A DNA stretch of 64,000 nucleotides from a virus. Both the position numbers and the translations under genes were made by a program. The notes under the pieces were generated by a model. The model was not told the origin of the DNA and did no database searches. It worked only from the letters and a program-made list of their open reading frames with translations. Below, piece by piece: positions 1 through 16,190 of the stretch. The stretch is from positions 1 to 64,000 of the IMG/VR virus record IMGVR_UViG_3300027779_000011; one strand, given 5' to 3'. Every line of letters starts with the position of its first letter. The first letter of the stretch is position 1.

Positions 1-1
1 A

Positions 2-244
2 AATGCAGTATTAGAAGGAGCGCTAGGAAGAAGTCATAGTTCATGGGATGATGCAATGAGTATAGCAAGAGGAGATGTAGATCTTCCTGATATAAAAGGA
101 TCCACACATTATTATTCTAAAAGTATCAATCCTCCATTCTGGGCAAAAGATACAGCAAATTGTTGGGAAAGACTATATGACGATAACTACCATGTGTTTG
201 GTAAAGATACCAGTGGACGATACGGTAACTGCCACCCAGAGTAA
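2..244 (+). CDS. Cell wall hydrolase (SleB/Hydrolase_2-like), C-terminal part; 5' end outside window
   Basis: Frame is open from position 2; GSTHYY..PFWA..HVF resembles the SleB C-terminus. Confidence 0.55.
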   Translation, partial: NAVLEGALGRSHSSWDDAMSIARGDVDLPDIKGSTHYYSKSINPPFWAKDTANCWERLYDDNYHVFGKDTSGRYGNCHPE

Positions 245-260
245 ATTAGGAGTAAGTTAT

Positions 261-902
261 ATGACTGATGAAGAAATAAAAATAATGCGCGATAGAATGG
301 ACGCAAACTATTTAGCGCATAGCCTCAGAAATAAAGAGGAAGAGTTTAGGCTGGCAGAGATGGGGATTGCGCCGTTTGTTCATCATATAACTGAAGCAGA
401 AAAAGTTCAGGTCTTAAGTGATTGGGCGGATAGATATGAGGAGATAGGCTTTTTCCTAGAGACTGGAACTAGAGAGGGAAATACGTTATTTGCAATGATG
501 GATAAATTTAAATATCTATATTCTGTTGAGCTAAATGAACGTTGGTATAATAAATCGATGAAAAAGTACAGAAAGAAAAAAAGCCCAAAGCATGTCAGAA
601 TAGAGCACGGAGATTGTTTATTATTTATTCCAAAGGTATTAGAGGAAACTAATGATAGGTGTTTTATTTGGCTAGATGCACATGGTAAACGTGGAACCCC
701 TATATTAGATGAGTTAAAGATTATATTTAATCATAGTATAAAAGATCATTTAATTGCTATAGACGACGCATATGAATTTAGCACGGGTCATTCAAATTAT
801 CCCAGTATATATCAGATTAGAGATTTAGCTCTAGAAAATGGATATAACTTTACAATGGAAAACGAAAGAGCCCCAGAGATTATGATTCTATATCCTCAGT
901 AA
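261..902 (+). CDS. Class I SAM-dependent methyltransferase-like protein
   Basis: FLETGT..GNT, YSVEL, HGD and FIWLDAH motifs; AGGAG upstream of ATG 261. Confidence 0.55.
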   Translation: MTDEEIKIMRDRMDANYLAHSLRNKEEEFRLAEMGIAPFVHHITEAEKVQVLSDWADRYEEIGFFLETGTREGNTLFAMMDKFKYLYSVELNERWYNKSMKKYRKKKSPKHVRIEHGDCLLFIPKVLEETNDRCFIWLDAHGKRGTPILDELKIIFNHSIKDHLIAIDDAYEFSTGHSNYPSIYQIRDLALENGYNFTMENERAPEIMILYPQ

Positions 903-942
903 ATTATATATATAAGAGACTTTTATATAGGATTATACATAA

Positions 943-970
943 GACCCAGCAAAACGCTGGGTTTTTTCTT
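943..970 (+). terminator. Intrinsic terminator
   Basis: CCCAGC-AAAAC-GCTGGG followed by T tract. Confidence 0.6.
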
Positions 971-1046
971 TATAAGGGTTATTTGTATATAGGGGGTAAG
1001 GATAACTGAGAAATAACGCGGAGACGGTGGGCGCAGCGCAGCGCGA

Positions 1047-1102
1047 GTGTGACGAACGTGTGACAATCATATAAGCATCAACCGTGTGACGATCCTGTGA
1101 CA
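1047..1102. repeat. Four TGTGAC direct repeats in two pairs spaced 11 bp
   Basis: TGTGAC at 1048, 1059, 1085, 1096. Confidence 0.7.
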
Positions 1103-1215
1103 TACAAACGTGAACACTTGACACAACAAAACATGATCGCTTTCGATATACTTTTATATAAGTTAGATATTTTTTTCTCCTGATATATACAGAGTTATCA
1201 AAAGGGAGAAACAAC

Positions 1216-2028
1216 ATGGGAAGCAAGAGCAAGCATCAGGTTCGTGGCGAGTCTCTACTGCGTGATCAGGGTTGCACTGATACCACTATCGGTGACCAAG
1301 TGGGTCTATTTGGTGACAAGGCTGGGGCGGCTTGCCATGTCAGCACCAAGCCAGCCCACTATCAGGCGGCTCAGAATGGCGGATCGATGGAAGGCCGTGG
1401 CCCCATCGTTGACTTTCGCTTGCCCGATGGTCGGTTTGCCGAGATCAAGTTTGGCAAGTCCAATACCTCCAGCGTTCCGTGGACTACCGGCACCGCCGAT
1501 CACCTCAACGCTGTGATCTGGGGCTGTGCCGCTGGCAATATCCTCACCGTCGTACTCACCGAGATCGGTGAGGGTCTGTGGCGGCGGGAGGTATACAACA
1601 CAAAGCCCCTTGCACTTGCGGCGATTGCTGCTTCTTCCGATGGTCAACCTCTCGTCGGTGAGTTCGATGTGGCAAGCGGCGGGAAAGGTAACGAGGGTTC
1701 GATCCCTTGGGCTGGTCAGTTCGGCAAGGGTCAAGGCCCGCTCCAGACTATCGGCTTCACTCGCCAGAAGTCAGGTCGCCGTCAGGCGGTGGATGCCAAT
1801 GGCAACCCTGTCACGGTCGAGGCCAAGGGCGCGAAGGCATACGTCAAGGGTCAGGGCTGGGTTCGCCCCACCGTTCAAAAGCCCGTGTGGGCGCGGAACG
1901 AAGATGGGTCGGTGGCCTACAAGTTTCGCCACTATGGAATGTGGCGGCACAACCTCTCCGCTCTGCGGAAAGCGGGTCTGGTCGAAACCACGGTTGTGCG
2001 CGAGGATGATCTCCTCACCGGGATCTGA
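1216..2028 (+). CDS. Hypothetical early protein, possible PD-(D/E)xK nuclease fold
   Basis: Motif B and GGGAGA SD upstream; VDF.....FAEIK motif. Confidence 0.5.
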   Translation: MGSKSKHQVRGESLLRDQGCTDTTIGDQVGLFGDKAGAACHVSTKPAHYQAAQNGGSMEGRGPIVDFRLPDGRFAEIKFGKSNTSSVPWTTGTADHLNAVIWGCAAGNILTVVLTEIGEGLWRREVYNTKPLALAAIAASSDGQPLVGEFDVASGGKGNEGSIPWAGQFGKGQGPLQTIGFTRQKSGRRQAVDANGNPVTVEAKGAKAYVKGQGWVRPTVQKPVWARNEDGSVAYKFRHYGMWRHNLSALRKAGLVETTVVREDDLLTGI

Positions 2029-2036
2029 TTCTGCCA

Positions 2037-2054
2037 GCCCCCCTTTCGGGGGGC
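2037..2054 (+). terminator. GC-rich hairpin ending the first unit
   Basis: GCCCCCC-TTTC-GGGGGGC directly before motif A. Confidence 0.55.
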
Positions 2055-2147
2055 CACCGGGAGAAAAGGTTTTCAAAAACCGAGCGACCTTGGAAAGTTA
2101 GATATTTTTTTTGATCCATATACACATGGATAAGAGAGGGAGGGACA

Positions 2148-2372
2148 ATGGCAAAGCGAAAGTCATCACAGCCGGTTCAAATAAAGAGGGTGATCAATCC
2201 CCTTTCCTTCACCGTCCAGGCTCCCAAGGGTCGCGATATTTTCATGCAAGCCTTGATCGCCCGCAAGGGTGCGGGTGCTGGCGCTCATCGGGCCAAGGCT
2301 TCTCGCGGGGATGGGTGTGGGAAGGGCAAGGCCGCCCGCCATCTAAAGCACAGGGGCCGCCGGGACTGGTAA
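2148..2372 (+). CDS. Small basic protein with weakly ArfA-like C-terminus
   Basis: Motif B and SD upstream; ends GKGKAARHLKHRGRRDW. Confidence 0.55.
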   Translation: MAKRKSSQPVQIKRVINPLSFTVQAPKGRDIFMQALIARKGAGAGAHRAKASRGDGCGKGKAARHLKHRGRRDW

Positions 2373-2430
2373 GAAGAACTCAGATATTTTTTATGATCGA
2401 TATATACACATGTATCAAAAGGGGATTCAA

Positions 2431-2847
2431 ATGACCTACACTACCGACGACATTCGCATGATTCTTGACACTAACCCTGACGCTGCCATGCGCGCGGTGT
2501 GTGCAATCTTCCGAAACCAGACGGGGTATGAGAAGTCCTGCCGTGCGACCGTGAACAAGAATGGGTACGGGTTCCGTGCGAATCACGCGAAGGCCGGATC
2601 GGATATGGCTCTCTGGATGACCCGTGGAAACCACGATGGTGTCATGCGCCGCCGAGTGGGTGGGACCGTGACTTACAACGGTCGGCAAGTTAGCCGCAAG
2701 TGGCTGGCCTATGAGATTGCAGGATGGTACAAGGAGCAGTTGGCGGTGGTTGCCAATCATGGATGCTTTGGTGACACGGGGCGAGAACGTGATCGTCGCT
2801 GGTGTGATGGCGCTTCGGATGTTCAGTGTGAAGAATACTATATCTAA
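2431..2847 (+). CDS. Hypothetical phage protein
   Basis: Motif B at 2377, AGGGG SD, ATG 2431. Confidence 0.7.
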   Translation: MTYTTDDIRMILDTNPDAAMRAVCAIFRNQTGYEKSCRATVNKNGYGFRANHAKAGSDMALWMTRGNHDGVMRRRVGGTVTYNGRQVSRKWLAYEIAGWYKEQLAVVANHGCFGDTGRERDRRWCDGASDVQCEEYYI

Positions 2848-2894
2848 GATATTTTTTTGAACGCAAATACATTAGACTACAATGGGGGCTAAAA

Positions 2895-3146
2895 ATGGAC
2901 GAGCGACAGGAGATTCAGAATACTCTCGACGAAGCATGGTTCGACCTGCTCTCGGAGGGGGCCGACTCCAAGGCTGTCAGGATTGACAGTGGCAGTCGAA
3001 AGTTTGGCGCGGGGCTGGCGACGATCAACACGAATGGAAGTGTGCAGGTTGGCAAGTGTACCTTTCGAGATTCGGTTCAGGCTGCGGATTTTGTGGTCAC
3101 CGGCCACGCATGTAACTTTCTCAAGAAGGAGGATGACCCAGAATGA
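2895..3146 (+). CDS. Hypothetical protein
   Basis: Motif B at 2843, SD. Confidence 0.65.
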   Translation: MDERQEIQNTLDEAWFDLLSEGADSKAVRIDSGSRKFGAGLATINTNGSVQVGKCTFRDSVQAADFVVTGHACNFLKKEDDPE

Positions 3147-3517
3147 GCAAACGTAAAGATTGGAAAGGGACCGAGCCGGTTGTCAGATCGCCGGATGGAC
3201 ACCGCCGCAAGCGGGAGTATGATGCCATGACCCCAGAGGAAAAAAAGGTTGTCCATCGGAGGCAGTTTGTTTCTTGGTTGAAAATGTTTCAGGGTTCCGA
3301 GGCGGTCATGCACATCGACGGAAAGGCCCAGACTCACAGCCCGATGACCAAAGAGGAGGCGGATTTGCACCTCGCAGTTTTCGATGGAGAGGTAGAGGTT
3401 ACCCCAGAGATTCGTTTGCGCTTCGCACAGTATGAGGCTCTGCGATTTCCTAACTCAAAAAAATGCACAGCAAAAATGTGGAAGGCTATGGAGGCTGTGA
3501 AAGATTCCGAGAAGTAG
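3143..3517 (+). CDS. Hypothetical protein
   Basis: ATGA overlap with the upstream gene; ends before motif A. Confidence 0.65.
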   Translation: MSKRKDWKGTEPVVRSPDGHRRKREYDAMTPEEKKVVHRRQFVSWLKMFQGSEAVMHIDGKAQTHSPMTKEEADLHLAVFDGEVEVTPEIRLRFAQYEALRFPNSKKCTAKMWKAMEAVKDSEK

Positions 3518-3559
3518 GCACGGGGCCACTCCCTTCGGGAGAAAAGGTTTACAAAAAAC

Positions 3560-3718
3560 AAAAAAAAGAAGGAAGGAGCGGCCCTAACCATCTCCCTTCC
3601 AGAAACTCTCGGGCCATTAGGGTGGTTCCAAGATGCCCCGCTGTTGTCCGAGTCGCCTACCGCGCACACCCTATGGGTATTGGGAGTTGCACCCACCGAT
3701 TTCCTCAACTGCCTCCTA
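3560..3718 (-). ncRNA. Candidate structured ncRNA of about 160 nt
   Basis: Own motif B promoter (- strand, 3727-3756), several stems, terminator-like end, no credible ORF. Confidence 0.45.
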
Positions 3719-3882
3719 TGATTCTTTATATTTTGAATAAAAAATATATCTCAGTTTTTCGGGCAGCCCGCCCCCGAGAGATTTCAAATCGGGAGAAAAA
3801 GTTTTCAAAAAAGGCCCGATTGAACAAAGGTTAGATATTTTTTATGATCGCAATATACATGGGTACCAAAGGGGGGAACCAA

Positions 3883-4761
3883 ATGAGTTCTTATAGCGAC
3901 AGTATCCGCGACGAGATTACCAGTCATTTTATCGCCGCTCTTGAGAAGGGCGATATTCCCTGGCACCGTCCGTGGAACGGGGTGAACACCCTTCCTCACA
4001 ACTGGACTACTGGTAGGCAGTACCGTGGTATGTTCAACCCCATCTGTCTTATGATGGTCGAGAACGCCCGTGGATTTGGCGACTCCCGCTGGGGTGGTAA
4101 GAGTCAAGTTCTCAAGGCTGGTGGTCGCATCCTTCGCGATGAGTTTAGCAAGCCCACCAAGATCCTTGCCCCAATCCTCAAGCCCACCGGAGAGGTGGGG
4201 CCGAACGGAAAGCCAAAGCTGGAGTGCCGTGGATGGCGCGTGGTCAAGGTTTGGAACGCTGCACAGTGTGAGGGCGTCCCGGTAGTGGAGGAAGCCGAAC
4301 CTGTCGATCCATCGGTTGGATTCGAGAAGGCTTCCGCTCTCTCTGTCGCCTCTGGCGCTGACATCAAGCATGGTGGAAATGTGGCTTGCTACCGTCCGAT
4401 CGATGATAACATCAGCCTTCCAAAGCCCGGTGCCTTCAAGTCTGTCAGCCACTACTGGTCTACGCACCTTCACGAGCTTGGCCATTGGACTGGCCACCAA
4501 TCTCGATTGAGCAGGAAGGGGATTACGGCAGGTGCCATGGGTAAGACCCGCGAAACCTATGCTTTTGAGGAGTTGGTTGCGGAAATGTCCTCCGCCATGA
4601 CTTGCCACACGCTCGGCATTGACGCGCCTGAGCTTATGGAGGGCCATGAGGCTTACATCAACAACTGGATTCGCACGCTCAAGAGTGATCCGAAGGCTCT
4701 CCAGCGGGCCGGATCTCAGGCTCAGAAGGCTATGGATTATCTTCTGAAAAATGTCAAGTAA
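3883..4761 (+). CDS. ardC: ArdC-family antirestriction / ssDNA-binding protein with zincin-like domain
   Basis: LEKGDIPWHRPW, N.TTGRQYRG.FN, HELGHWTGH.SRL.R, YAFEELVAEM. Confidence 0.88.
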   Translation: MSSYSDSIRDEITSHFIAALEKGDIPWHRPWNGVNTLPHNWTTGRQYRGMFNPICLMMVENARGFGDSRWGGKSQVLKAGGRILRDEFSKPTKILAPILKPTGEVGPNGKPKLECRGWRVVKVWNAAQCEGVPVVEEAEPVDPSVGFEKASALSVASGADIKHGGNVACYRPIDDNISLPKPGAFKSVSHYWSTHLHELGHWTGHQSRLSRKGITAGAMGKTRETYAFEELVAEMSSAMTCHTLGIDAPELMEGHEAYINNWIRTLKSDPKALQRAGSQAQKAMDYLLKNVK

Positions 4762-4767
4762 AAACCG

Positions 4768-4783
4768 AGGGGCTTCGGCCCCT
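4768..4783 (+). terminator. Hairpin with UUCG loop after ardC
   Basis: AGGGGC-TTCG-GCCCCT. Confidence 0.55.
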
Positions 4784-4902
4784 GGTATTTCGCAAACCTT
4801 TTCTCCCGATTAGAATACCGACTGGGCCATGTCCATGAGACGAAGATAAGTTAGATATTTTTTATAAATAAAGTATGTTTACGCATACACAGGAGTTTTC
4901 AA

Positions 4903-5346
4903 ATGTTTGGTAAAAAGTTTTTTGAGCGTGTTGTCTGTGCCGATGGCTTCTCTGTGAGCGTGCAAGCGAGCAGTTTCAACTACTGCTCTCCGCGAACGGA
5001 TGAAGGCCCGTGGGAGAGTGTGGAGTGTGGCTTCCCCACCAAAGAAGGGGGTCCGGCTTTGGAGAAATATGCAGAAGATCCCGGTGCTGGCACTACAAGG
5101 GTCGGCCCCCATGGTGAGGATATTGAGACTGGACAGGTCCAGACGGTTTACGGCTGGGTTCCAAGTCAGGTCGTTATGCAGATCATCGAGTCGCACGGCG
5201 GGATGGTCAGTGGCGAGTTGCCAGAAATGGTGCCGGAGGAATATTCCGATCCAGAACAGGATGGGATTGACGCAACCGAGGCTGCGAAAGAAATGATGGA
5301 TGCAGCCGGAGCCTTGTTCATCATGACTGGCGGCTGGGAGGGATAA
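4903..5346 (+). CDS. Hypothetical phage protein
   Basis: Motif B at 4848, AGGAG SD; CADGFSVSVQAS..YCSPR. Confidence 0.7.
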   Translation: MFGKKFFERVVCADGFSVSVQASSFNYCSPRTDEGPWESVECGFPTKEGGPALEKYAEDPGAGTTRVGPHGEDIETGQVQTVYGWVPSQVVMQIIESHGGMVSGELPEMVPEEYSDPEQDGIDATEAAKEMMDAAGALFIMTGGWEG

Positions 5347-5349
5347 AAA

Positions 5350-5484
5350 ATGTTTGAACTTATAGAACCCTTGCTGTGGATGGCTGCTTGCTGGGCTTGC
5401 GGCATCCTTACGGGCCTTGGACTTGGGACGGCCATTACCTTGCAGCGATTGGCTCGCAGCAAGGCCAACGAAGCCTCGATTTGA
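5350..5484 (+). CDS. Small membrane protein (44 aa, not in ORF track)
   Basis: GGAGG SD; MFELIEPLLWMAACWACGILTGLGLGTAITLQR. Confidence 0.55.
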   Translation: MFELIEPLLWMAACWACGILTGLGLGTAITLQRLARSKANEASI

Positions 5485-5595
5485 TTCGGGGCTTCGGCTC
5501 TTCCATTTTTGTAAACTTTTTCTCCCCATCGAGCGTATAATATAAAGTTGGATACTTTTTTATTCCGAAGTATAAAGGAATGAAGGGAGGATAAT

Positions 5596-6228
5596 ATGAA
5601 GATTCTACACTCATCGGACCTCCACAGCCACTACGAAGGGCTGTCCTCCTTCTCAGATTTTGATCTATGGATTGACACTGGAGATTTTTTCCCAAACAAA
5701 ACTCGCGGCGACCGAGAGGTGGAGGTAGGGTTTCAAAAGGAGTGGGCTGGATCGAACAATCTTGGAGAGCTTCTGGCAAAGTGGCTTGACGGTCGCCCAC
5801 TGGTTTCTATCGGTGGAAATCACGATTATACCTCGCTGGCCAATCTTGTTAGAGAATCTGGAGGGGAGGCGTTCGATCTTTCCGAAGGTCCGGTCGAGAT
5901 TGCTGGCATGACTTTTGCAGGGTTTAGAGAAATCCCTTGGATTTTTGGAGAATGGAATGGAGAAACCCACGATCTATCCAATCTGGTTCGTAATGCTATT
6001 GGGGCTGATCCTGATATACTTGTCACTCACGCTCCTCCCGCTGGGATCTTGGATACTCGACAATATCGAGGTGGTATCGAAGGCCTTACTATGGCTCTGA
6101 ACTATCAGCCCCATCGAATCAAGTACCATTTTTTCGGTCATATCCATGGAAATGGCGGGAAAGCTGTGGACGAAATGGGCATCAAGTTTGTCAATGGAGC
6201 AAACCACATTAGGCTTTGGGGCATTTAG
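5596..6228 (+). CDS. Calcineurin-like metallophosphoesterase
   Basis: SDLH, GD, GGNHD, THAPP and FGHIH motifs. Confidence 0.9.
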   Translation: MKILHSSDLHSHYEGLSSFSDFDLWIDTGDFFPNKTRGDREVEVGFQKEWAGSNNLGELLAKWLDGRPLVSIGGNHDYTSLANLVRESGGEAFDLSEGPVEIAGMTFAGFREIPWIFGEWNGETHDLSNLVRNAIGADPDILVTHAPPAGILDTRQYRGGIEGLTMALNYQPHRIKYHFFGHIHGNGGKAVDEMGIKFVNGANHIRLWGI

Positions 6229-6274
6229 CCCCGCCCTTTCGGGAGAAAAAGTTTGCAAAAAAAGCAAAGCAGAA

Positions 6275-6512
6275 AAACCCCTCCCCGTTTGGGGAGAGGG
6301 GCAGCGGGGAAACGATGAGTTCGGTTAGCGCAGCTTGTGTGCAAAACAGGATCGGAATAGATTGCTATTTGAGAAGTGAGTAGTTCGCGACCTACCAAAT
6401 CTCGTTACATCCCTCGGCCTCTTAGTTTGCCTTGCCATCTTACTTTCATCGTTTCCCCGCTGGGAGCTTTTCTTAGAAGCCTAACCAGCTGGGTTTGTTT
6501 CCTCCTTGCTCT
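6275..6512 (-). ncRNA. Candidate rod-shaped ncRNA (about 235-nt transcript, 161-nt domain closed by a 17-bp stem)
   Basis: Motif B at 6519-6551 (-); perfect inverted repeat 6302-6318/6446-6462; terminator 6273-6301; no sizeable ORF. Confidence 0.55.
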
Positions 6513-6682
6513 AACCCTATATACTTTAGTTATAAAAAATATCTTAGTTTTCACCAGGTCGCTGACGGCGACAGCCAGGCCCATCCAATCGGGAGAAAAG
6601 GTTTACAAAAAGAACTGAAGGTGAGAAAAGTTAGATATTTTTTATAATCACAATATAAAGAGGTATCAAAAGGAGAATCAGA

Positions 6683-7150
6683 ATGAACAATCTTTCCGCA
6701 ATCAACGCCCTCGCTCTTTCCATCGCTGGCAAGCAAGGTGCAAAGTCCAGTCGCCCCGATGCTGGTGATTATCACGTTGGCTTTGAAGTCAGTTTTGATG
6801 ATGGGCAGTTTCTTCGGGTCAATGGCCCCGTTCGTCAGGGCGAGGATTACGATCAGGCCGTTTGGCAGAGCGTCCCGTGGCAGATGATTGCCGCCGTGCT
6901 ATTCAGCAAGACCAATGGGGTTACGATGGAGGCTGTAATGCGCGAGTCTTTGGAGTTGGTGGCGGGGGGCAAGCTCCCCGGCTATGTTGCGAACCCCGAC
7001 GATATTGACGAGGAAACGAAGCGTCCCAAGGTGATGCGGATCAAGGATGCTGCTTCTTTGGCAGTCAAGGCACTGACCGAGCAGACCACCAAGCCCTTCA
7101 AGGGTAAGGCTACCAACGGGCTGGTCTACTCTGGTCCTCGGGAGGGATGA
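6683..7150 (+). CDS. Hypothetical protein
   Basis: Motifs A and B plus AGGAG SD. Confidence 0.75.
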   Translation: MNNLSAINALALSIAGKQGAKSSRPDAGDYHVGFEVSFDDGQFLRVNGPVRQGEDYDQAVWQSVPWQMIAAVLFSKTNGVTMEAVMRESLELVAGGKLPGYVANPDDIDEETKRPKVMRIKDAASLAVKALTEQTTKPFKGKATNGLVYSGPREG

Positions 7151-7257
7151 GGGATAAATCGCACCACGTGCGACCGATGACAGGCCGGGGGAAAAATAGC
7201 CTGTCACCCTACCCTTATTTCGCCAACCTTTTCTCCCCACCTATTTATGGAGTATCC

Positions 7258-7479
7258 ATGTATAAAGCATCTACACTGATCGGAACCAAAGCCAAGAATC
7301 ACGCTCGCACGCCAACTCAGTTGTGGGGTATGGGCCTTAGCCCCGAGGAGGTCGAGCGTGTGTTCATAGTTGAGGTGTGGGGTTCTGGCATTATGGATCC
7401 CGGTCCTGATTTTACTGAGCATCGTGCGCTCGACAACAGTGGCTCCATTATTGCCACTCACCAAATGGATGGGTATTGA
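7258..7479 (+). CDS. Hypothetical protein
   Basis: GGAG SD before ATG 7258. Confidence 0.6.
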   Translation: MYKASTLIGTKAKNHARTPTQLWGMGLSPEEVERVFIVEVWGSGIMDPGPDFTEHRALDNSGSIIATHQMDGY

Positions 7480-7547
7480 TTCTTGATTCGCCATGAAATA
7501 TTAGATATTTTTTTTGATTCAAATATGTATACGTACAAGAGGGATGA

Positions 7548-7754
7548 ATGGACGGAGATAGCCAACAACAGAAGATGACCGATCTTATCATTTTCATCGG
7601 AATGGGGCTTGCGATTGGGTTCGCGTGGTTCAAGGTATATGCCGAGCCGAGAGAACAGTTTATTGTGCAGGTTATGGACTGCATGGCTGAGAATGGCGAT
7701 ATTCACTCAGAACTTATGTATGAAAACTGCGCGAAAGAAGTGCGAGGCAAATGA
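7548..7754 (+). CDS. Small membrane protein
   Basis: Motif B at 7498; one hydrophobic segment. Confidence 0.6.
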   Translation: MDGDSQQQKMTDLIIFIGMGLAIGFAWFKVYAEPREQFIVQVMDCMAENGDIHSELMYENCAKEVRGK

Positions 7755-7884
7755 ATGTTTGGAATAAGATTCGGATATGCGTATGATCGATCAAGAACTC
7801 AAGATATTATTGAGAGAATGAAGAAAAGAAACAAAGATCAGCGAGAGCTTGAAAAGAATGAAAAGAAAGAAAAGCAACCAGTAA

Positions 7885-7961
7885 TGGGGTGAGGCGTCAC
7901 AGGCAGACGCACTCGGCTGTTACCCGAGATGTTGTTGGTTCGAGTCCAACCGCCCCAGCCA
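7885..7961 (+). tRNA. tRNA-Asn(GTT), atypical D-arm
   Basis: TGGGGTG/CGCCCCA acceptor stem, CTCGG-CTGTTAC-CCGAG anticodon arm, GTTCGAGT T-loop, encoded CCA. Confidence 0.8.
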
Positions 7962-8080
7962 TATAGGAGGTTTAGCATGACCTGGAACCGATTTTTGAAA
8001 ACGAAACTTGTGGAACGACAGTACACTAACAGGCAAGTGCTTGTGATTGCTTGTGTGGCACTGGCATTGGGAGCTATTTC

Positions 8081-8302
8081 ATGTTGAGAGGAACTGAACT
8101 ATATAGCAATACCGTTCGCTCTGTTGGGGAACTTATTGTGAGTGGATTCTGGTATAGTGATGCGTGTGAAGCCATGTGGGTCATTCTTGGACTGACAGGG
8201 GAATCAGCGCCAGATGTCTGGTGGGACTTGTTTGAGCTTGACGTAAACGCATATACAGATGGTAGAAAAGTATCTATCCCGAAATATAAGACTATCTTTT
8301 AG
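8081..8302 (+). CDS. Hypothetical protein
   Basis: GGAG SD; ends just before motif A at 8309. Confidence 0.55.
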   Translation: MLRGTELYSNTVRSVGELIVSGFWYSDACEAMWVILGLTGESAPDVWWDLFELDVNAYTDGRKVSIPKYKTIF

Positions 8303-8342
8303 TCTTACCGGGAGAAAAAGTTTACAAAACACATATGTGCGC

Positions 8343-8522
8343 TCATAAGTAAGCACCGTTTCTGCGATGCCACACTCTTTCTCGCTCACATTCCACTCGA
8401 CACTCTTTTGCGTCTTCATAGATTTCGGCCAAGCCTTTATCGCTGGGGTATGGGTTTTGAATCCCCTCAAATCCCGCATCCCATGCTTTTTCTTCTTCTT
8501 TGGTAACAATATAGAGCCTCAT
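8343..8522 (-). CDS. Hypothetical protein (59 aa, not in ORF track)
   Basis: ATGA-coupled to 8519-8731; MRLYIVTKEEEKAWDAGFEG. Confidence 0.6.
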   Translation of the reverse strand: MRLYIVTKEEEKAWDAGFEGIQNPYPSDKGLAEIYEDAKECRVECERERVWHRRNGAYL

Positions 8523-8731
8523 TTTAGGCGCCTACAAACCAACTCTTGATGAATAACCCCGTCAATAGCCCCCTTCATAACGGTCTGGAGATCACGAAGA
8601 TCGACGGGTCCATCCAGTTCTGCTTCTTTTATGGCAAATCGAACTACATCAGAAAATGAGTTACAAATAGCACTCGCATCATCAGTCCACTCTGAGTCGC
8701 CACTGGGCCGACGAATAAAAAGCTGAGTCAT
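8519..8731 (-). CDS. Hypothetical protein
   Basis: Reverse motif B at 8757, AAGGAGG SD. Confidence 0.7.
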   Translation of the reverse strand: MTQLFIRRPSGDSEWTDDASAICNSFSDVVRFAIKEAELDGPVDLRDLQTVMKGAIDGVIHQELVCRRLK

Positions 8732-8904
8732 ATAATCATCCCTCCTTACAAGTTCTTATATTACGATTATAAAAAATATCTCGCCTTTTGCTCCTGAGTC
8801 CGGGCGCCGCTGAACCGGGAGAAAAAGTTTGCAAAAAGGTCCATCATTTCAAAACTCAGATATTTTTTATAATCGCAATATAATGAGGTATAAGAAAGGA
8901 GAAT

Positions 8905-9123
8905 ATGATGAAAGATTCTGGATTTGCACTTAGGTTGATTGTTTCAACTTCACTTGGGGAAGTAGTAGAGGGCATCTTGATGCTCCAGTCAAAGAGGGAT
9001 TCCGGTCGGGCTTCGATGGCTGAAACATTTCAGTTACTTCAATGGGAAGATGATTTGGATTATGTAATGAACAATCTTGAGGGAGATGCCGTCCCCGATC
9101 CTCGATTGGTAGGGAGGGCGTAA
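8905..9123 (+). CDS. Hypothetical protein
   Basis: Motifs A and B plus AAGGAG SD. Confidence 0.65.
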   Translation: MMKDSGFALRLIVSTSLGEVVEGILMLQSKRDSGRASMAETFQLLQWEDDLDYVMNNLEGDAVPDPRLVGRA

Positions 9124-9311
9124 TGATTGAAAATCTCATAACTAAGCTACTTGATGATGATCATGGAATAAACGAAGATGCTTTTCTTGAGTTGGTGAAA
9201 TATCTTGAACATATTGGAGCAGCGAATATGATCGATAAGCTCAATAAGAAAGTCGAAGCCTCTGATGGGAGGTTCTATTACCCCTTGCCAAACTTTTTTG
9301 GAGATGAATAA
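9123..9311 (+). CDS. Hypothetical protein
   Basis: Translationally coupled operon. Confidence 0.6.
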   Translation: MIENLITKLLDDDHGINEDAFLELVKYLEHIGAANMIDKLNKKVEASDGRFYYPLPNFFGDE

Positions 9312-9568
9312 TGCAACGCCACCAAACCGAAAACTTTAGAGCCGATGGAGATAGCAAGCACCCCAATGGGCCGTACCTTGTGTTTGGCGACGGTTCAACC
9401 TACGCCGGAATAGAGGGGGCTGTTGTCTGCTATATTAGTGAAAATGGCGAGGAAGAACTTGATTCGATAAACGACTTCAAGGCCGTTAGTGAGGAAAGCG
9501 CGATGTACGTGTCCGTACACGAACTTCTAAACTGCTGGGCTATTGTGCATCAAGAGGGCAAAAGATGA
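9311..9568 (+). CDS. Hypothetical protein
   Basis: Translationally coupled operon. Confidence 0.6.
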   Translation: MQRHQTENFRADGDSKHPNGPYLVFGDGSTYAGIEGAVVCYISENGEEELDSINDFKAVSEESAMYVSVHELLNCWAIVHQEGKR

Positions 9569-9795
9569 ATAACCAAATATTTTCCTCACTTCCTCCGCGT
9601 GCATACAAGCGCTGCCCCAATAGTGATAAACATAAAAACTTTATCACAGGCGCTGCGGTATGCCAAGACTGGGTTGTTGACGGAACTGGAAACTTTATTG
9701 AGGTTTTTGACGAATGTACTCAAGTCCTTCATAAGCCTGATACTGAAAACGAATGGACATGCGCAGATTGTGGCGCGATATCTATATCTATATAA
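9565..9795 (+). CDS. Small zinc-ribbon-like protein
   Basis: CP....H and WTCADCG motifs. Confidence 0.55.
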   Translation: MNNQIFSSLPPRAYKRCPNSDKHKNFITGAAVCQDWVVDGTGNFIEVFDECTQVLHKPDTENEWTCADCGAISISI

Positions 9796-9817
9796 ATGAC
9801 AAATGGGAGGAGTGGTA

Positions 9818-10078
9818 ATGTTTCTATTCAAGTTGAGCCAAGATGTAAATAACGACTACGATACTTACAGCAGTTGTGTTGTTGTGGCGAAAGATCCAGA
9901 GAGTGCAAAGGCCATGGTTCCATATAATCCTGCGTTTGATGATGATGATGATGATGATTATTCATACAGGACGCAGGCGTGGGCGTACATCAAAGATGTG
10001 ACGGTTCAGTGTGTTGGACAGGCTGCCGATGGGCTAAGAGAGGGTGAGATTATTTGCGCCTCATTTCATGCCGGATAA
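9818..10078 (+). CDS. Hypothetical phage protein
   Basis: GGAGG SD; YDTYSSCVVVA..ICASFHAG. Confidence 0.65.
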   Translation: MFLFKLSQDVNNDYDTYSSCVVVAKDPESAKAMVPYNPAFDDDDDDDYSYRTQAWAYIKDVTVQCVGQAADGLREGEIICASFHAG

Positions 10079-10278
10079 TCTCCGGCGCCCTTTCGGGAGA
10101 AAAAGTTTGCAAAAAAAGGTGACCGAACAAAAGTTAGATATTTTTTATAATCACAATATATGGTGGTATCAGAGAGGCCGAGAGGCAGAAGGCAAAGGGT
10201 CGAAAAACTCTGATATTTTTTACACCCTAACTATAACACTGAAGACGGGATAAGCCGTCGAAACCAAAGGAACTAAAA

Positions 10279-10722
10279 ATGAGTAACATTTTTGAAAACG
10301 AAAAGAACGAGTCGGCAATCCAGACCATCAAAGAGACGATGAAGGTTTTTGCTGCCGATGACGGCACGCCAATGGTCAGTTTTGCCACTAATAAGGGCAA
10401 GGGTAGCGGCGCTCAGGTTATGAGTGTTGTGACATTTCGAGACTATGTTGAGGCTGTCTCGCATTATGCCGAAAATGGTATTGATGAGATTCCCACTCAG
10501 GATAACCTCTCTCCGGCAGAGACTGTTCACCAGACCATTTCTATGGATGACGATGGCATCGTATCGTTCCGAGTCCGAAGTGGAAAGGGTGCAAAGCCAG
10601 CCAAGATTCAGTCCCTCGATTTTCAAGATGTGGCGTCACTTCTTGAGTCCACAGTTAGTCCGGTTGAGGCGGCGGCGGAACGGCTGTCCCCTCAGACCAC
10701 CGATCTCGCCACAACTGAATAA
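10279..10722 (+). CDS. Hypothetical protein, paralog 1 of 3
   Basis: Highly similar to 12508-12918 and 17603-18046; two motif B copies upstream. Confidence 0.85.
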   Translation: MSNIFENEKNESAIQTIKETMKVFAADDGTPMVSFATNKGKGSGAQVMSVVTFRDYVEAVSHYAENGIDEIPTQDNLSPAETVHQTISMDDDGIVSFRVRSGKGAKPAKIQSLDFQDVASLLESTVSPVEAAAERLSPQTTDLATTE

Positions 10723-10784
10723 ATAAGTCCCCTGACCTTGGGTAAGTCAAAAAACTGCCCATTTTTTACACACAGGAGATTTGT

Positions 10785-10973
10785 ATGCGCAGACCTAACT
10801 CAACAGTCCGCTCCAAGATTGATCGCAAGGCAGCCGCCGATGCTATTGCGGAGGAGCGGACCAAGCGTTCTGATGCGGAACAGCTTGCGATTCTTGATCA
10901 CAGACTTGGAGGTGGGGTCGGAGCAGGGCGCGAACGTAAGCGTCTGCTCGGTCGAATCGTTCCAAAGGGTTAG
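10785..10973 (+). CDS. Small basic protein
   Basis: AGGAG SD. Confidence 0.6.
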   Translation: MRRPNSTVRSKIDRKAAADAIAEERTKRSDAEQLAILDHRLGGGVGAGRERKRLLGRIVPKG

Positions 10974-11059
10974 AGTGTGTGTACAGGCGCAGGGAGGCAC
11001 GGCCTTATAGGTGCCTCAACAGTTATAAGAAAGGGTCCGATACACTTTAGGGGTGATTA

Positions 11060-11332
11060 GTGAATGTAGGCGACTTAGTAAGGCTAACAGGCCATCGGTG
11101 TCATGGGATTCATGGAGGGAGCAAGACGGTGGAGGGTACGATTATTGATATCTCCCCTCATACCGAAACCTATGCATCTTCTGGATGCTTAGAGTATTTA
11201 GTTCTAACCCCCACCGGCCTGAAACACCGATGCTGGAAAGGTGACTTGATTGTTGTTAGAAAAGTCTCGGAACATGGAAGCTGGCATAAACTGTGCGGCA
11301 CTCCAGTGATGCATCCGCCCCAAAAAAATTAG
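11060..11332 (+). CDS. Hypothetical SH3/KOW-like small protein
   Basis: MNVGDLV N-terminus, beta-rich pattern. Confidence 0.5.
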   Translation: MNVGDLVRLTGHRCHGIHGGSKTVEGTIIDISPHTETYASSGCLEYLVLTPTGLKHRCWKGDLIVVRKVSEHGSWHKLCGTPVMHPPQKN

Positions 11333-11470
11333 TGGATTTTACTCGACATTCTTCAGCGGAGGGGGCAGGCGAAAGTCGCCCCCTCGGGAGAAAAAGCTTA
11401 CAAAACACAAGAAAGTAAAAGTTAGATATTTTTTATAACCAAAGTATATAGAGGTGTAAGGGGGCTTAGA

Positions 11471-11878
11471 ATGAAAGATTACTACTCTACCGAAGAACTC
11501 ATGCTCCGTACGATCATAGATATTTCGCGTGACAATGCCCTTCAGGAAGTAGATATTCTCGCTCTTGAAGAACGTGTGCGCACACTGACTGAGGCAGAAA
11601 GTTCAGATCATGTTCAGAATCTTGAGCGCAAACTAAGGGCCATTCAGCAGTCTTTTGAATCCATCCTGGTCAACCCTGATCGCAAGATCCCCATGATCAA
11701 GATGTATCGGGCTATTTTCAACTCTGGGCTAAAAGACTCCAAGCACGCTATCGAGAGGTCTGAGCTATGGAATAGGTGCAAGGTCGCTAAAATCAGCGTG
11801 GTGGGTGTGCAGAATAGTTCTCCACCCGAGGGCATCGCAGAGATATTGCCGTCGTGGTTCGATGGGGAGGAGACTTGA
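11471..11878 (+). CDS. Coiled-coil protein with ribosomal L7/L12 C-terminal-like domain
   Basis: KIPMIKMYRAIFNSGLKDSKHAIE resembles bL12 KIxVIKxVRxxTGLGLKEAKxxVE. Confidence 0.6.
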   Translation: MKDYYSTEELMLRTIIDISRDNALQEVDILALEERVRTLTEAESSDHVQNLERKLRAIQQSFESILVNPDRKIPMIKMYRAIFNSGLKDSKHAIERSELWNRCKVAKISVVGVQNSSPPEGIAEILPSWFDGEET

Positions 11879-12106
11879 TATGAAAGTATGTCCAAAGGAT
11901 GCAAGATGCGGCACTGAGGCGTCATAATAATATCGTTCCTGCCTTTGCCTTGGCGTCGACGGACAGAAGGGCATCGAATACTGGACGACCGCTGGCAGAG
12001 CGGGGGGAAAATACTCTGCCTTTCTTCCCCCCCGGGAGAAAAAGTTTGCAAAATTTGTGCACGCAAGGGCGCGACCTACCTTGGTTGGCGGGCCGCGCTC
12101 CTAATA

Positions 12107-12271
12107 CTATCTCCCGATACGGTCACGGATCTTCGCCCTAAGCCCACAAGCCTTGTCAGAATCGGTGGGCAAACGGTCCAGAAAGGCCATTAGCTCCGCG
12201 TCTCCCGCAGACTTGTTTCTTAGAGCAGACCGAACCTCAAGGAATAAGATTCTACGATCTTGACATTCCAT
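12107..12271 (-). CDS. Hypothetical protein (54 aa, not in ORF track)
   Basis: Reverse motif B at 12343, AGGAGG SD, MECQDRRILFLEVRSALR. Confidence 0.65.
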   Translation of the reverse strand: MECQDRRILFLEVRSALRNKSAGDAELMAFLDRLPTDSDKACGLRAKIRDRIGR

Positions 12272-12507
12272 TGGCACCTCCTGCTAAAAGTGTATCGAGA
12301 GGATGATTTGTGATAAGGAACCCTCATCACCTCTCGCCCTTTTATATTTTGATTCAAAAAAATATCTAAGTTTTGCCTTGCCTCTCCCGAGGATCTCAAA
12401 TCTTTCGATCTTTTGGGAGAAAAAGTTTACATAATATAATAAATATATTTCATTTGAAAATAGCAAGGGCAGTTTTCATCTCTTGCCCAGGAGCTTTCAT
12501 TATAGCT

Positions 12508-12918
12508 TTATGAAAGGGTTTCACCTGCCGCTTCAACTGAATCAACAGTGGCGGAAAGAAGGCTGGAAACCTCACCGAACTCATCGGCATTTAGCTTGGC
12601 GGGCTTGGAGCCTTTACCAGACTTGATTCTGAAGCTAATAACTTCGTCCTCAAGGGAGATGGTTTGATGAACCATTTGAGCGGGAGAAAGGTTCTCATCA
12701 GATGCAGTCTCACTGATACCGTTTTCGGCGTAATGAGATACAGCACTAACGTAATCAGCAAAATCGCTAACTGCCATTACTTGAGATCCTGTACCCTTCC
12801 CCTTATTGGTAGCAAAAGAAACCATCGGGATGCCGTCATCAGATAGAAAGACCTTCATGGTTTCCTTTACAATCTGAACAGCGGAGAGTTCAACTTCGTC
12901 ATTGAAGATGTTGGCCAT
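12508..12918 (-). CDS. Hypothetical protein, paralog 2 of 3
   Basis: MANIFNDE..VSFATNKGKG; AGGAG SD; reverse motif B at 12973. Confidence 0.85.
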   Translation of the reverse strand: MANIFNDEVELSAVQIVKETMKVFLSDDGIPMVSFATNKGKGTGSQVMAVSDFADYVSAVSHYAENGISETASDENLSPAQMVHQTISLEDEVISFRIKSGKGSKPAKLNADEFGEVSSLLSATVDSVEAAGETLS

Positions 12919-13163
12919 TTTATTAGCTCCTATCAATCTTGTCTTTCGGCACCATGCCTTCTGACATACACATATATATGCGTTATAAAAAATATCTAAG
13001 TTTTGCACTACTTGGATCTCGTGAGCATCTCCCGCCACTAATCGGGAGAAAAGGTTTATAAAGTTTATTATTGTGGCATTTGATACTATAATGATATTTT
13101 GTCTATGTATAGTATATAACGGTGTGAGAACGAGATACCAGCCTAATGACAGGGAGAGTACCA

Positions 13164-13427
13164 ATGATTGAAGTAGAGTATGAAGGTAACACTTATGGAT
13201 TTTGTAAAAGAACCAATGATACCTATTGGATTGGAATAAGAGGAAGTAGAAACGTCATGTTTCCCGGTCCCTATTGTGCCGTTCCATTGTCTTTTTATAA
13301 AGAACTTCATAGGAAGGCTTTGGAGGATGGACATGAGGAATCTATCTTTAGAAACCCGAAGAAGCAAAAGAAGGTTCGCTCTGCACGAGTTAGGGCTAAG
13401 AAAGAAGTTGGAATCAAAATTTTTTAA
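13164..13427 (+). CDS. Hypothetical protein, paralog of 53319-53558
   Basis: MIEV.Y.G.TY..AVP.S.Y..L..IKIF shared. Confidence 0.7.
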   Translation: MIEVEYEGNTYGFCKRTNDTYWIGIRGSRNVMFPGPYCAVPLSFYKELHRKALEDGHEESIFRNPKKQKKVRSARVRAKKEVGIKIF

Positions 13428-13440
13428 TCAGGAGTTTGTA

Positions 13441-13671
13441 ATGTCTATTGGCCGAAAAGAAATGAATGATGCAATCCAGAAGTTCATTAGTGAAGGTGGA
13501 GAGATCGTTCAGATGAAGTATGCTAACGAGAAGGTGCAAAACAAATCTCATCGTAAATCATATCATATTTTGAGACAGGATGATAACCCCCGATCTAAAG
13601 AATATCTTGAGCGAGAGGATAAGAAGGAATCTCAGCTTGTTTTCTCAAAAGATGATCGGATGCGTCAATAA
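13441..13671 (+). CDS. SutA RNAP-binding-domain-like protein
   Basis: AIQKFISEGGEIVQM resembles the SutA xxEEFLxRGGKVQxI motif; AGGAG SD. Confidence 0.5.
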   Translation: MSIGRKEMNDAIQKFISEGGEIVQMKYANEKVQNKSHRKSYHILRQDDNPRSKEYLEREDKKESQLVFSKDDRMRQ

Positions 13672-13929
13672 AAAAGATAGCTTTGCCCCCCCGCAGCGGG
13701 GGGGATGGAGTATGTGTGCGTACACATATAAGTTAAATATATTTTTTCTATTTGAATTATTCAATGCTAACAGAGTAAGATTATGATTGTTACATTGGTT
13801 GCGGGATTTCTTGCAGGAGTTGGAGTTTGCGATTTTTCAAGGAATAAGAAGTTTTCAGGAACGTGCATGTGTGTGCTTTCTGTCTTGCTTATTTTTTCAT
13901 CTATCGGAATTTTTTAATTAGGAAATAAA

Positions 13930-14118
13930 ATGGATACAGAAACTAAGAGTGATGTTACTATGCAAAGGTCTAATAGGCGATTTAACCCCTACAGGGTAAC
14001 CATTATGGTGACTAATAATCAAACTGGCGCTGTGTTCACGCACAGAGGCTTGACCAGACATGAGGCTGAGTGGATCGACCTCGATCCAAACCTAACTGTA
14101 GAGTATTTGAAACACTAA
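13930..14118 (+). CDS. Hypothetical protein
   Basis: ORF with AGGA SD. Confidence 0.55.
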   Translation: MDTETKSDVTMQRSNRRFNPYRVTIMVTNNQTGAVFTHRGLTRHEAEWIDLDPNLTVEYLKH

Positions 14119-14136
14119 GAACCTTTAGGAAAATGA

Positions 14137-14212
14137 GGGTCCATAGCTCAACTGGTAGAGCATCGGACTTTTAATCCGCAGGTTCTGGGTTCGAGTCCCA
14201 GTGGACCCACCA
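14137..14212 (+). tRNA. tRNA-Lys(TTT)
   Basis: Canonical cloverleaf, CTTTTAA loop, CCA. Confidence 0.93.
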
Positions 14213-14227
14213 TTTTCTCAACTTTGA

Positions 14228-14305
14228 AGGCCCATAGCTCAATCAGGTTAGAGCATCGCTCTCATAAAGCGCAGGTTCTCGGTTCAAGTCCGAGTGGGCC
14301 TACCA
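14228..14305 (+). tRNA. tRNA-Ile2(CAT) (lysidine type; elongator Met not excluded)
   Basis: AGGCCCA/TGGGCCT acceptor stem, GGTTAGAGC D-arm, CTCATAA loop, CCA. Confidence 0.8.
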
Positions 14306-14323
14306 TTTATTTAGGATTTAATT

Positions 14324-14524
14324 ATGGATAGTTCAGTGAAGAATTACTGGCCGAGTACACAGCTATGTATGGAGTGTGAGCATAGCATATCTGTAATGGG
14401 TGATGACGAGCCTACATACGTGTGTTCAGTTGGCGTAAAACTTGGACCTTGCGAATCCAAGTGCGAGGAGCAATCTGAAATTGTCGAGGAATCCCCATTG
14501 GGAGATGACCCTATTCACTGGTAA
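14324..14524 (+). CDS. Small Cys-rich protein
   Basis: CxxCxH and further Cys; ends before motif A. Confidence 0.55.
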   Translation: MDSSVKNYWPSTQLCMECEHSISVMGDDEPTYVCSVGVKLGPCESKCEEQSEIVEESPLGDDPIHW

Positions 14525-14635
14525 ACGCCCTCCCTTTCGGGAGAAAAAGTTTACAAAATATTTTGCAATCCATAGTTAAATTATTAGATATTTTTTTTAA
14601 TCAGAATATATCTTCGTATCAGGAGGTAGTCTGCT

Positions 14636-14920
14636 ATGAATAGAGTTAGGGCAATTAGAGAAGATGCTATTGTTGGTATCGGAAGCTGTTCATCTATTGA
14701 TGAGTGCTTAACAAATATTGAAGTTCGTGATCTTCTTGATGAAGATAACATCACAACTTCCTATGAAGCTGTGAAATGGGCAAGGGATAGAGAGCTTTTT
14801 TATCTTGAAAATGCTATGAACTATCGCCGGGGTGGTGATGATGATCCCCAGCTTAGCGATTACCATTCTTTTGAGAAGCTAATAAAAGAAAACCCAATCT
14901 CTTTAATTACAAAGCTCTAA
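14636..14920 (+). CDS. Hypothetical protein
   Basis: Motifs A and B plus AGGAGG SD. Confidence 0.7.
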   Translation: MNRVRAIREDAIVGIGSCSSIDECLTNIEVRDLLDEDNITTSYEAVKWARDRELFYLENAMNYRRGGDDDPQLSDYHSFEKLIKENPISLITKL

Positions 14921-15258
14921 AGGAATTAAGAACTATGGTCTGGACCGCTATCCTTTCTAATGGAATAAACACTACTTCAGAATATATCATGACGGATACC
15001 CCCTGTCATGAAAAGGCGGTAGCAGCCTTTTATAACGTCAGGGTTGAAAACGGTATGTTTCTTGTTGCGATAATTAAAGGACGACATGAAGTTTATGTTT
15101 AATCTTTTAAAGAATGAGTTTAAGTTTGTAAAGAATAGGATGTATATGCTTGGTCTAAACAAGTGGCATCTTCTCTCAATCTTATCTCTTGAAATCATTG
15201 GATGGACTCTTATTTTTATTCTTGGCTATAAAGCCTACAACTGTTGTTAGGAAATATC

Positions 15259-15549
15259 ATGACAAATAAAAATGTAATTAACGCTTGGGTAGATGGCCGT
15301 ATAGCCAGTAGTTGCAACGGCAACATGTCTACAAACGGTGTAGATCTCTATTCATATAATCTAAAGATTGCTTCAAGGCAGGACCATCAGTTCAGGATTT
15401 GGGACTATACAGCAAGCGGTCATTATTACTCTCAGACTACCTCATGTCATGTGAGTTTGGCGCTAAGAATGTTGGACGGAAGTTTCTTTCTTATGCAGCC
15501 AAACACTGACGGTTCTCCTGATGACTATTATAAAAATCTATCTGCTTGA
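15259..15549 (+). CDS. Hypothetical phage protein
   Basis: LYSY..YSQTTSCH motif; SD. Confidence 0.6.
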   Translation: MTNKNVINAWVDGRIASSCNGNMSTNGVDLYSYNLKIASRQDHQFRIWDYTASGHYYSQTTSCHVSLALRMLDGSFFLMQPNTDGSPDDYYKNLSA

Positions 15550-15577
15550 TATTCAATCTAAAAAAAGAGAGTAAAAG

Positions 15578-15913
15578 ATGCTCACTCGTAGACAATTCTT
15601 TGCACGTATGCGCAAATTAGGTTTCTCCAAATCACGTATGCAGATGACTCGCATTGGCTTAACATACGTGAGGGATGACGAAAATGGGCGTGTTACCGTG
15701 ACGGTTCCCAAGTATCATGAGTCAACCTTTACCATCTTGGGAGATACGCCAAATAGCGGCATCTTTGTTAAGGACATCGGAAAGGAAACTAACTGGGGAA
15801 TTCCCGTTAATCCTAATTCAATTGGCCTGAATAATATGCTGGAGGTATGCCTTGGGCTTTGCTCTGGTGATGTTCACATGACGGCTCCTGATTATGAACG
15901 ATATGAGGGGTAA
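15578..15913 (+). CDS. Hypothetical protein, weak HicA-like pattern
   Basis: LGF..VTVTVP.H pattern. Confidence 0.5.
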   Translation: MLTRRQFFARMRKLGFSKSRMQMTRIGLTYVRDDENGRVTVTVPKYHESTFTILGDTPNSGIFVKDIGKETNWGIPVNPNSIGLNNMLEVCLGLCSGDVHMTAPDYERYEG

Positions 15914-15917
15914 TGAC

Positions 15918-16190
15918 ATGTACCGAATCGGAAGCATCATCGAGTATCAAACATTCACAGGCGCTGCTCGCATTGTTCTTGTGGAGGAAAAGGATGATGA
16001 CATAAAGAATGGCCGGGCAGGTTTTGGCGGAATACTTGAGCCAAGCCATATGAAAAATGCCGAACTCCGCGCCGAACGACCGGGCATTTCTAAGCTGGAA
16101 AACCGCCCCCGAAAGTTCGAGAACGGAGTGGCGGAAGGGGCGGGAGTCTGGGGCTACGATAGTCAGATTACTAAAGTATTAAAGTACTAA
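15918..16190 (+). CDS. Hypothetical protein
   Basis: GAGGGG SD. Confidence 0.55.
   Translation: MYRIGSIIEYQTFTGAARIVLVEEKDDDIKNGRAGFGGILEPSHMKNAELRAERPGISKLENRPRKFENGVAEGAGVWGYDSQITKVLKY

Follow-up and report, generated by a model that had tools for sequence, protein, structure and literature searches.

A probable stand-alone structured RNA gene in the early-type region of an uncultured large marine phage

To our knowledge, stand-alone structured RNAs are numerous in large phages, and a job is known for almost none of them. The locus studied here raises the question of whether a short cassette next to a phage metallophosphatase gene specifies a genuine RNA of this sort and what such an RNA might do. 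It is located in the window, which is the stretch of DNA analyzed throughout and comprises positions 1 to 64,000 of an IMG/VR virus record of 158.7 kb with a CheckV completeness estimate of 47%. An identical stretch is contained in a 288-kb marine metagenome scaffold. The initial annotation read the cassette as carrying a rod-shaped non-coding RNA, possibly a decoy similar to 6S RNA. Our results indicate that a real structured non-coding RNA gene is very probably present, as judged from gene anatomy, conservation, compensatory pairing, strand and the lack of a coding frame. The source appears to be an uncultured large marine phage, and the RNA gene appears to be confined to a narrow clade of such phages. 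A nucleotide search against cultured phages gave no match, and tblastn with two neighboring proteins returned distant matches only, all below 40% identity, and so gave no host assignment.

The predicted unit is framed on the minus strand by a promoter and a terminator (Table 1). Motif B is a sigma70-like promoter motif, with TTAGAT, a T-rich 17-nt spacer and a TATAAT-like element. In the window it was matched 16 times where 0.57 matches would be expected, always within the first 21 kb, and the reversed copy that had been annotated upstream of the unit is one of these. Its minus-strand match at 6529-6546 has 2 mismatches to the early-promoter consensus. Promoter geometry places the transcript start near A6512, and the promoter appears to be of the same type as that of the neighboring early protein cassettes. 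An SD and an ATG gene follow each of the other four reversed copies of motif B in the window, but not the copy upstream of the RNA. At the other end, the annotated terminator, a minus-strand hairpin at 6277-6302 trailed by a T run, was recovered as the top-ranked terminator-like site in positions 1-20000, and it begins 2 nt past the closing helix P1. From these ends, the unit would be a stand-alone minus-strand gene running from ~6512 to ~6270 with an RNA of ~240 nt. The roughly 240 nt between promoter and terminator contain no conserved ORF, in agreement with the proposal that a non-coding RNA is the sole cargo of the cassette. Promoter type and genome position are the grounds on which its transcription may be called early.

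Table 1. Predicted features of the RNA cassette and its neighbors (window coordinates).
Feature	Position	Strand	Description
Early-type promoter (reversed motif B)	6518..6546	-	-35 TAAGAT 6541-6546; 17-nt T-rich spacer; -10 TATATA 6518-6523
5' domain	6463..6512	-	50 nt; single-stranded purine tract, then hairpins H1 6483-6495 and H2 6465-6481
P1 closing helix, 5' arm	6446..6462	-	perfect 17 bp with 6302-6318
Rod interior	6319..6445	-	10 x 9-nt internal loop at P1, short helices, small invariant side hairpin, apical hairpin
P1 closing helix, 3' arm	6302..6318	-	exact complement of 6446-6462
Intrinsic terminator	6268..6299	-	9-bp G+C-rich hairpin 6278-6299, AAAC loop; U tract 6268-6277
Motif A copy	6590..6611	+	exact match to 22-nt consensus; upstream cassette boundary
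Motif A copy	6240..6261	+	other cassette boundary, downstream of RNA unit
Metallophosphatase gene	5596-6228		neighbor of RNA unit
155-aa gene	6683-7150		divergent from RNA unit; conserved neighbor

The cassette, driven by its early-type promoter, is bounded on both sides by motif A. The window contains 15 copies of this 22-nt boundary motif, whereas 0 would be expected, and both borders are kept at the same positions in the homologs. The upstream copy separates the promoter of the RNA from that of the 155-aa gene, which is divergent. In all homologs the RNA cassette is divergent from the 155-aa gene, and the opposite neighbor varies: it is the metallophosphatase in the clade of the window, and the related contigs L027, L032, and L042 have there a small gene on the minus strand that is served by a promoter of its own. 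The metallophosphatase cassette occurs in L032 and is missing in L042, and the same RNA is found in both. More generally, the early region (2058-18180 in the window, and its counterparts in L027, L032, L042, and L045) consists of motif A-bordered cassettes whose order differs among relatives. In L045, a 124-aa gene is followed by the homolog of the 155-aa gene, without the ArdC, metallophosphatase and RNA block between them. The 155-aa protein itself had no family match, and its structure prediction was unusable (pLDDT 51). Two cassettes from the RNA, positions 3844-4761 code for an ArdC-like anti-restriction protein with an ArdcN and a zincin-like metallopeptidase domain. The proximity of this gene suggests that the region serves takeover or counter-defense.

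Eight distinct versions of the RNA were found in marine metagenome contigs (Tara Oceans, polar, and other marine). They were located through the neighbors, the metallophosphatase and the 155-aa gene, in syntenic contigs, and others were added by searching metagenome contigs for a 19-nt block of the RNA. The first three versions were used to build a covariance model, which recovered the RNA in every version on the same strand, with 186-300 bits. Nucleotide identity of the RNA among versions was 77-89%, whereas the flanking genes showed 63-83% when these pairs were compared. The model found no paralog in the rest of the 158.7-kb record and no copy in two more distant related phage records. In L045/L046 and L052/L053, the 155-aa gene is present in another arrangement and the RNA is absent. 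An exact scan of viral contigs with the 17-mer of P1 and two conserved blocks gave no further copy of the RNA; single arms of the 17-mer occurred in three contigs and were taken as chance. One exact block of the RNA was also compared with 185,579 prokaryote genomes. This search gave a single match, in an Amylibacter MAG, which is no homolog and was taken as chance because the covariance model fails to recognize it. A distant relative with a complete 173-kb genome (L008), whose metallophosphatase is 53% identical, has a non-homologous element of ~110 nt at the same position (4636-4760, plus strand). This element has an 11-bp G-rich/C-rich closing helix and a z-score of -3.8, and it may represent an alternative RNA carried at this site downstream of the metallophosphatase.

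The two arms of P1 are exact complements, as the initial annotation stated, and they occur nowhere else in the 158.7-kb record. No other inverted repeat with separated arms in the 64-kb window is 100% complementary, and the chance of such a pair is below 1e-3 by our own estimate. The whole unit folds better than all 200 of 200 shuffles (z -3.07), as does the 161-nt rod alone (z -4.16, 200/200). The inverted repeat, the promoter, the terminator and the fold relative to shuffles thus argue for a real observation and against a chance pattern. The 161-nt rod appears to be irregular and closed by a helix of 16-17 bp, with pairing rather than sequence conserved and with invariant loops. Nested stems converging on an apical GTAG/CTAC hairpin had been described. 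The hairpin was recovered in the consensus fold of the homologs (6380-6395), but the plain rod was not, the predicted interior being irregular, with a side hairpin and a three-way junction. The 8-nt apical loop GUCGCGAA is invariant and holds the palindrome UCGCGA, and the stem beneath it covaries; several further internal blocks of the rod are also invariant among the eight sequences. The unpaired region noted beside the closing stem corresponds to the 10 x 9-nt internal loop of the consensus fold. Its sequence is free to vary while the surrounding pairing is kept. In this loop AGUA (7/8) stands opposite GAA (8/8), a signature that suggests a candidate loop E/sarcin-ricin motif. In L032 and L027, P1 contains a mid-helix 2x2 internal loop, and the inner half of the L027 helix has been re-paired by two double substitutions.

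Covariation was assessed in a model-guided alignment of eight related sequences from one narrow clade, with 67 predicted pairs. In agreement with the structure first proposed, the fold is kept across the homologs through compensatory changes. Double-sided changes with pairing kept were found in 9 of the 67 pairs, compared with 3.3 +/- 1.2 in column shuffles, and 95.8% of the alignment cells were paired, counts that lean to the model structure because the alignment was fitted to it. None of 500 shuffles reached nine compensatory pairs and slid-partner controls gave 0-3, and many unrelated column pairs among the eight sequences covary too through shared ancestry. Four of the compensatory pairs are in the closing helix (of 16 modeled), two in the apical arm and three in the terminator (of 9). 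One change can be followed stepwise: columns 67:198 are G-C in four versions including that of the window, A.C in L026 and L036, and A-U in L039. In addition, the alignment contains 38 G-U cells versus 6 A-C cells. This imbalance indicates that the pairing works on the minus-strand RNA, which agrees with the promoter and the terminator.

The first 50 nt of the predicted transcript (6463-6512) had been treated merely as flank. They lie outside the rod, but they are the best-conserved part of the transcript, being 96-98% identical in the three closest versions, compared with ~85% for the rod, and showing only scattered changes across all eight versions. The promoter architecture is kept in the homologs. 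The promoter and spacer upstream of the predicted start are much less conserved than the RNA, and strong conservation begins at AGAGC, which coincides with this start. Within the domain, an AAGGAGG tract at 6501-6507, located 5 nt from the predicted start, is invariant, and no start codon follows it. H1 holds CCAGCUGG, and the loop length of H2 differs among homologs. The H1 loop CAGCU is a candidate partner of AAGCUG at 6329-6334 in the rod, a pairing that would create a pseudoknot. The fold of the domain is no better than that of shuffles (z 0.16). Structure alone therefore cannot account for the conservation, and the sequence itself seems to be selected. The small helices are invariant among the eight sequences, hence they give no covariation signal. 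Since its sequence occurs only once in the genome, the domain is no repeated module. The promoter, leader and SD of the RNA mirror the same module in the divergent protein cassette, and the SD tract therefore probably came from the generic cassette and was later retained.

Two further ideas about the 5' domain were considered and rejected. Pairing of the purine tract with the 3' tail as a general helix was no better than in shuffles in seven of eight homologs. The exception was L027, the most diverged homolog, in which the terminator tail UUUUCCUCCU (1107-1130, minus strand) could pair perfectly with the 5'-end AGGAGGAAA. This pairing of the L027 tail (CCUCCU) with the 5' end was matched by 1 of 300 shuffles, and the other homologs do not have it. 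A tRNA-like reading was also discarded, since ARAGORN and a tRNA model found nothing and loop length varies among homologs. As a separate observation, positions 6463-6495 resemble two regions of the tRNA-Arg genes of the phage at 44494-44570 and 49726-49802, namely the D arm (CAGCUGGnUAG) and, in part, the anticodon arm (GGCnUUCUAAG). This likeness may reflect derivation from a tRNA fragment, or it may be due to chance.

The coding potential of the unit was examined in the same eight versions. The 14-codon ORF reported earlier is present in this phage, and the earlier view that it is not the product agrees with our comparison, in which its ATG, stop and frame are not conserved. The ATG is replaced by ATA in three of the eight versions (L026, L036, and L039) and is also missing in L027, and of the eight only the window and L032 retain the stop. 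No ATG, GTG or TTG is found 5-12 nt past AAGGAGG, and 1-nt indels part this SD-like tract from every downstream frame. There is no conserved reading frame on either strand in the eight versions. A conserved protein product is thus refuted by these comparisons.

The RNA would most likely act in trans. The reading that we prefer, with a probability of roughly 40%, is a trans-acting RNA that binds and sequesters or scaffolds a host or phage protein. The odds given to the possible functions follow from the size of the RNA, its conserved fold, its invariant loops and its position in a takeover region near the ArdC-like gene. Protein binding is preferred over simple base pairing for two reasons: the unit is long, with a kept rod fold, invariant blocks and an invariant apical loop, and no complementary target beyond chance was found in the phage genome. 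According to this proposal, the RNA would be transcribed from its sigma70-like early promoter and would stop at the strong intrinsic terminator, giving two modules, a near-invariant and mostly single-stranded 5' domain and the irregular 161-nt rod. Contacts with the protein would be made through the invariant loops and the 5' domain, while the rod and terminator would supply stability. In addition, the RNA might be protected by a 30S subunit held on the purine tract at its 5' end, by analogy with SD-like 5' stabilizers. Such elements, found in Gram-positive and phage mRNA leaders, include the STAB-SD of cryIIIA and the polypurine stabilizer of phage SP82 early RNA. They likewise have a strong SD-like tract near the 5' end that is not followed by a start codon, and SP82 offers a parallel to a predicted early phage RNA; however, they are leaders of mRNAs, whereas the tract described here heads a non-coding RNA. 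What appears to stand against protein binding is that the best-conserved part is a single-stranded 5' segment, which is also the hallmark of a base-pairing seed.

A base-pairing regulatory sRNA is accordingly the first alternative to be weighed, and we regard it as possible, if on balance unlikely. The 5' purine tract AGAGCAAGGAGGAAACAA would be the seed for pyrimidine-rich targets, and the rod and terminator would serve as stabilizer or chaperone handle. Such targets might be mRNAs of the host, the 16S rRNA 3' end or, with the RNA acting as a sponge, host sRNAs through their anti-SD-like seeds. The high conservation of the 5' domain relative to the rod and the apparent selection on its sequence rather than its structure favor this alternative. 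Like trans-acting phage and bacterial sRNAs, the RNA has its own promoter, a conserved single-stranded 5' end that could act as a seed, and an intrinsic terminator that ends in a U tail. Trans-acting sRNAs encoded by phages are a known kind, an example being given by a preprint (10.1101/2024.10.31.621285). However, the longest complementarity in the phage genome was 12-13 nt, as expected for the search space. In addition, the conserved 161-nt rod far exceeds the usual load of an sRNA, the whole RNA is longer by a factor of two to three, and its tract is purine-rich (SD-like) and not pyrimidine-rich. The record also contains no Hfq gene, but this counts for little, as Hfq would normally come from the host.

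A second alternative, which we consider improbable, is an early decoy for a core host machine. The RNA could be a functional analog of 6S RNA that titrates sigma70 RNA polymerase, or it could capture 30S subunits through its start-codon-less SD tract placed before a stable rod. As a variant, it could self-associate through the palindromic UCGCGA apical loop, forming kissing-loop dimers.

More doubtful still is a 6S-like decoy in the strict sense, in which a helix-trimmed rod would mimic an open promoter through its internal loop and shut off host and early transcription. The rod has some of the appearance of 6S RNA (RF00013 and related), with a similar size, a long closing helix of 16-17 bp, a 10 x 9-nt internal loop whose sequence is free while the flanking pairing is kept, and a long irregular upper arm. 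On this reading, abundance and action in trans would also be shared with 6S RNA. The early promoters are sigma70-like, and a decoy would presumably be useful if the phage later switches away from such promoters. However, the Rfam search gave no support to the identity suggested by the initial annotation, as no 6S model matched the locus or five homologous loci even with E values of up to 10. In the primary transcript the closing helix is an internal element, with 50 nt on its 5' side and the terminator on its 3' side, the internal loop adjoins this helix instead of being central, and the upper arm is branched with a side hairpin. The invariant 5' domain, which 6S RNA does not have, is left unexplained, and the RNA is encoded by a phage. 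In the models, the resemblance to 6S RNA appears limited to gross shape.

Comparison with other known families gave similar results. Rfam at the gathering score, run over the window, had no match at the RNA locus, and at E up to 10 nothing was found in 6100-6700 or in five homologous loci, with 6S, Y RNA, SRP RNA and phi29 pRNA included. For Y RNA/YrlA there was thus no Rfam match, and no Ro60 (TROVE) gene is adjacent; the only Ro60-like candidate in the window is a 499-aa DUF2828/DUF7788 protein (40331-41830), ~34 kb from the RNA. No model of phi29-type packaging RNA matched the locus or the five homologous loci. In the 158.7-kb record, itself a fragment (CheckV 47%), no RVT_1 reverse transcriptase of a retron msr-msd was found, and no RNase III, RtcB or Hfq is encoded. 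A likeness to SRP RNA seen by eye was abandoned, as there was no Rfam SRP match. The idea of a CsrA sponge was also dropped, since the approximately four GGA motifs are, by our own count, about what composition predicts.

The general kind of the RNA is already known, namely the orphan stand-alone structured RNAs of large uncultured phages. Fremin et al. (2023; PMC10690425) report 10,006 published candidate structured RNAs of IMG/VR, and the large ornate phage RNAs GOLLD and ROOL are further examples (PMC12286853). Like these, the RNA described here appears to be a stand-alone structured RNA gene of an uncultured phage with covariation support, and its self-complementary loops might permit RNA-RNA contacts, as in GOLLD/ROOL-type RNAs. 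Unlike GOLLD or ROOL, it is much smaller, and it has no Rfam match to either. By comparison with Rfam, it appears to represent a new orphan phage RNA family. The RNA is small enough for synthesis and has clean predicted ends, and it combines an invariant SD-like 5' domain with a covarying rod. If it binds RNA polymerase, ribosomes or a defense protein, it would be an RNA-based takeover or counter-defense tool; otherwise, it would be one more orphan RNA family to catalog. Of such RNA-based tools we know very few.

The remaining alternatives do not involve a functional RNA. A DNA-level element, such as a miniature inverted-repeat transposon, a cruciform, a protein-binding site or an origin, is very improbable. 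The perfect 17-bp inverted repeat around 127 bp and two invariant palindromes, CAGCTG at 6486 and TCGCGA at 6385, would suit such an element. However, a single copy with covarying arms was found in the 158.7-kb record instead of the several copies with conserved terminal repeats typical of a MITE, and two related phage records have none. Unlike transposon ends, the arms change by compensatory substitutions and tolerate internal loops. In addition, the 38 to 6 ratio of G-U to A-C cells points to one transcribed strand, and the promoter and terminator frame the unit exactly. Least probable of all is a small-protein gene, coding for the 14-codon basic peptide or for a longer frame from the strong SD, to which the perfect AAGGAGG and the ORF in this phage lend some appearance but which is contradicted by the loss of the ATG in four homologs and of the stop outside the window and L032, by the lack of a usable start after the SD, by the frame-breaking indels, and by comparable peptide stretches that differ mostly non-conservatively. 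The rest of the odds, after protein binding and its rivals, falls to something else.

Other RNA genes were also observed in the window. Nine tRNA genes are located between 7885 and 53004, including two each of tRNA-Asn, tRNA-Met, and tRNA-Arg, and the phage encodes a one-piece tmRNA (58728-59122, 122 bits) with the tag ANNNYYYSNVALAA. In addition, the minus strand at 3556-3724 contains another cassette with RNA as its only cargo, which likewise has a reversed motif B and a terminator of its own. Its RNA has no Rfam match. The cassette is conserved in L020 and L045, and 10 of 48 predicted pairs change on both sides, a count based on three sequences only. A 5' purine tract of this RNA pairs with a CCUUCUU tract at its 3' end, and it contains a hairpin that resembles the T arm of a tRNA (GGGUUCGACCCC in L020).
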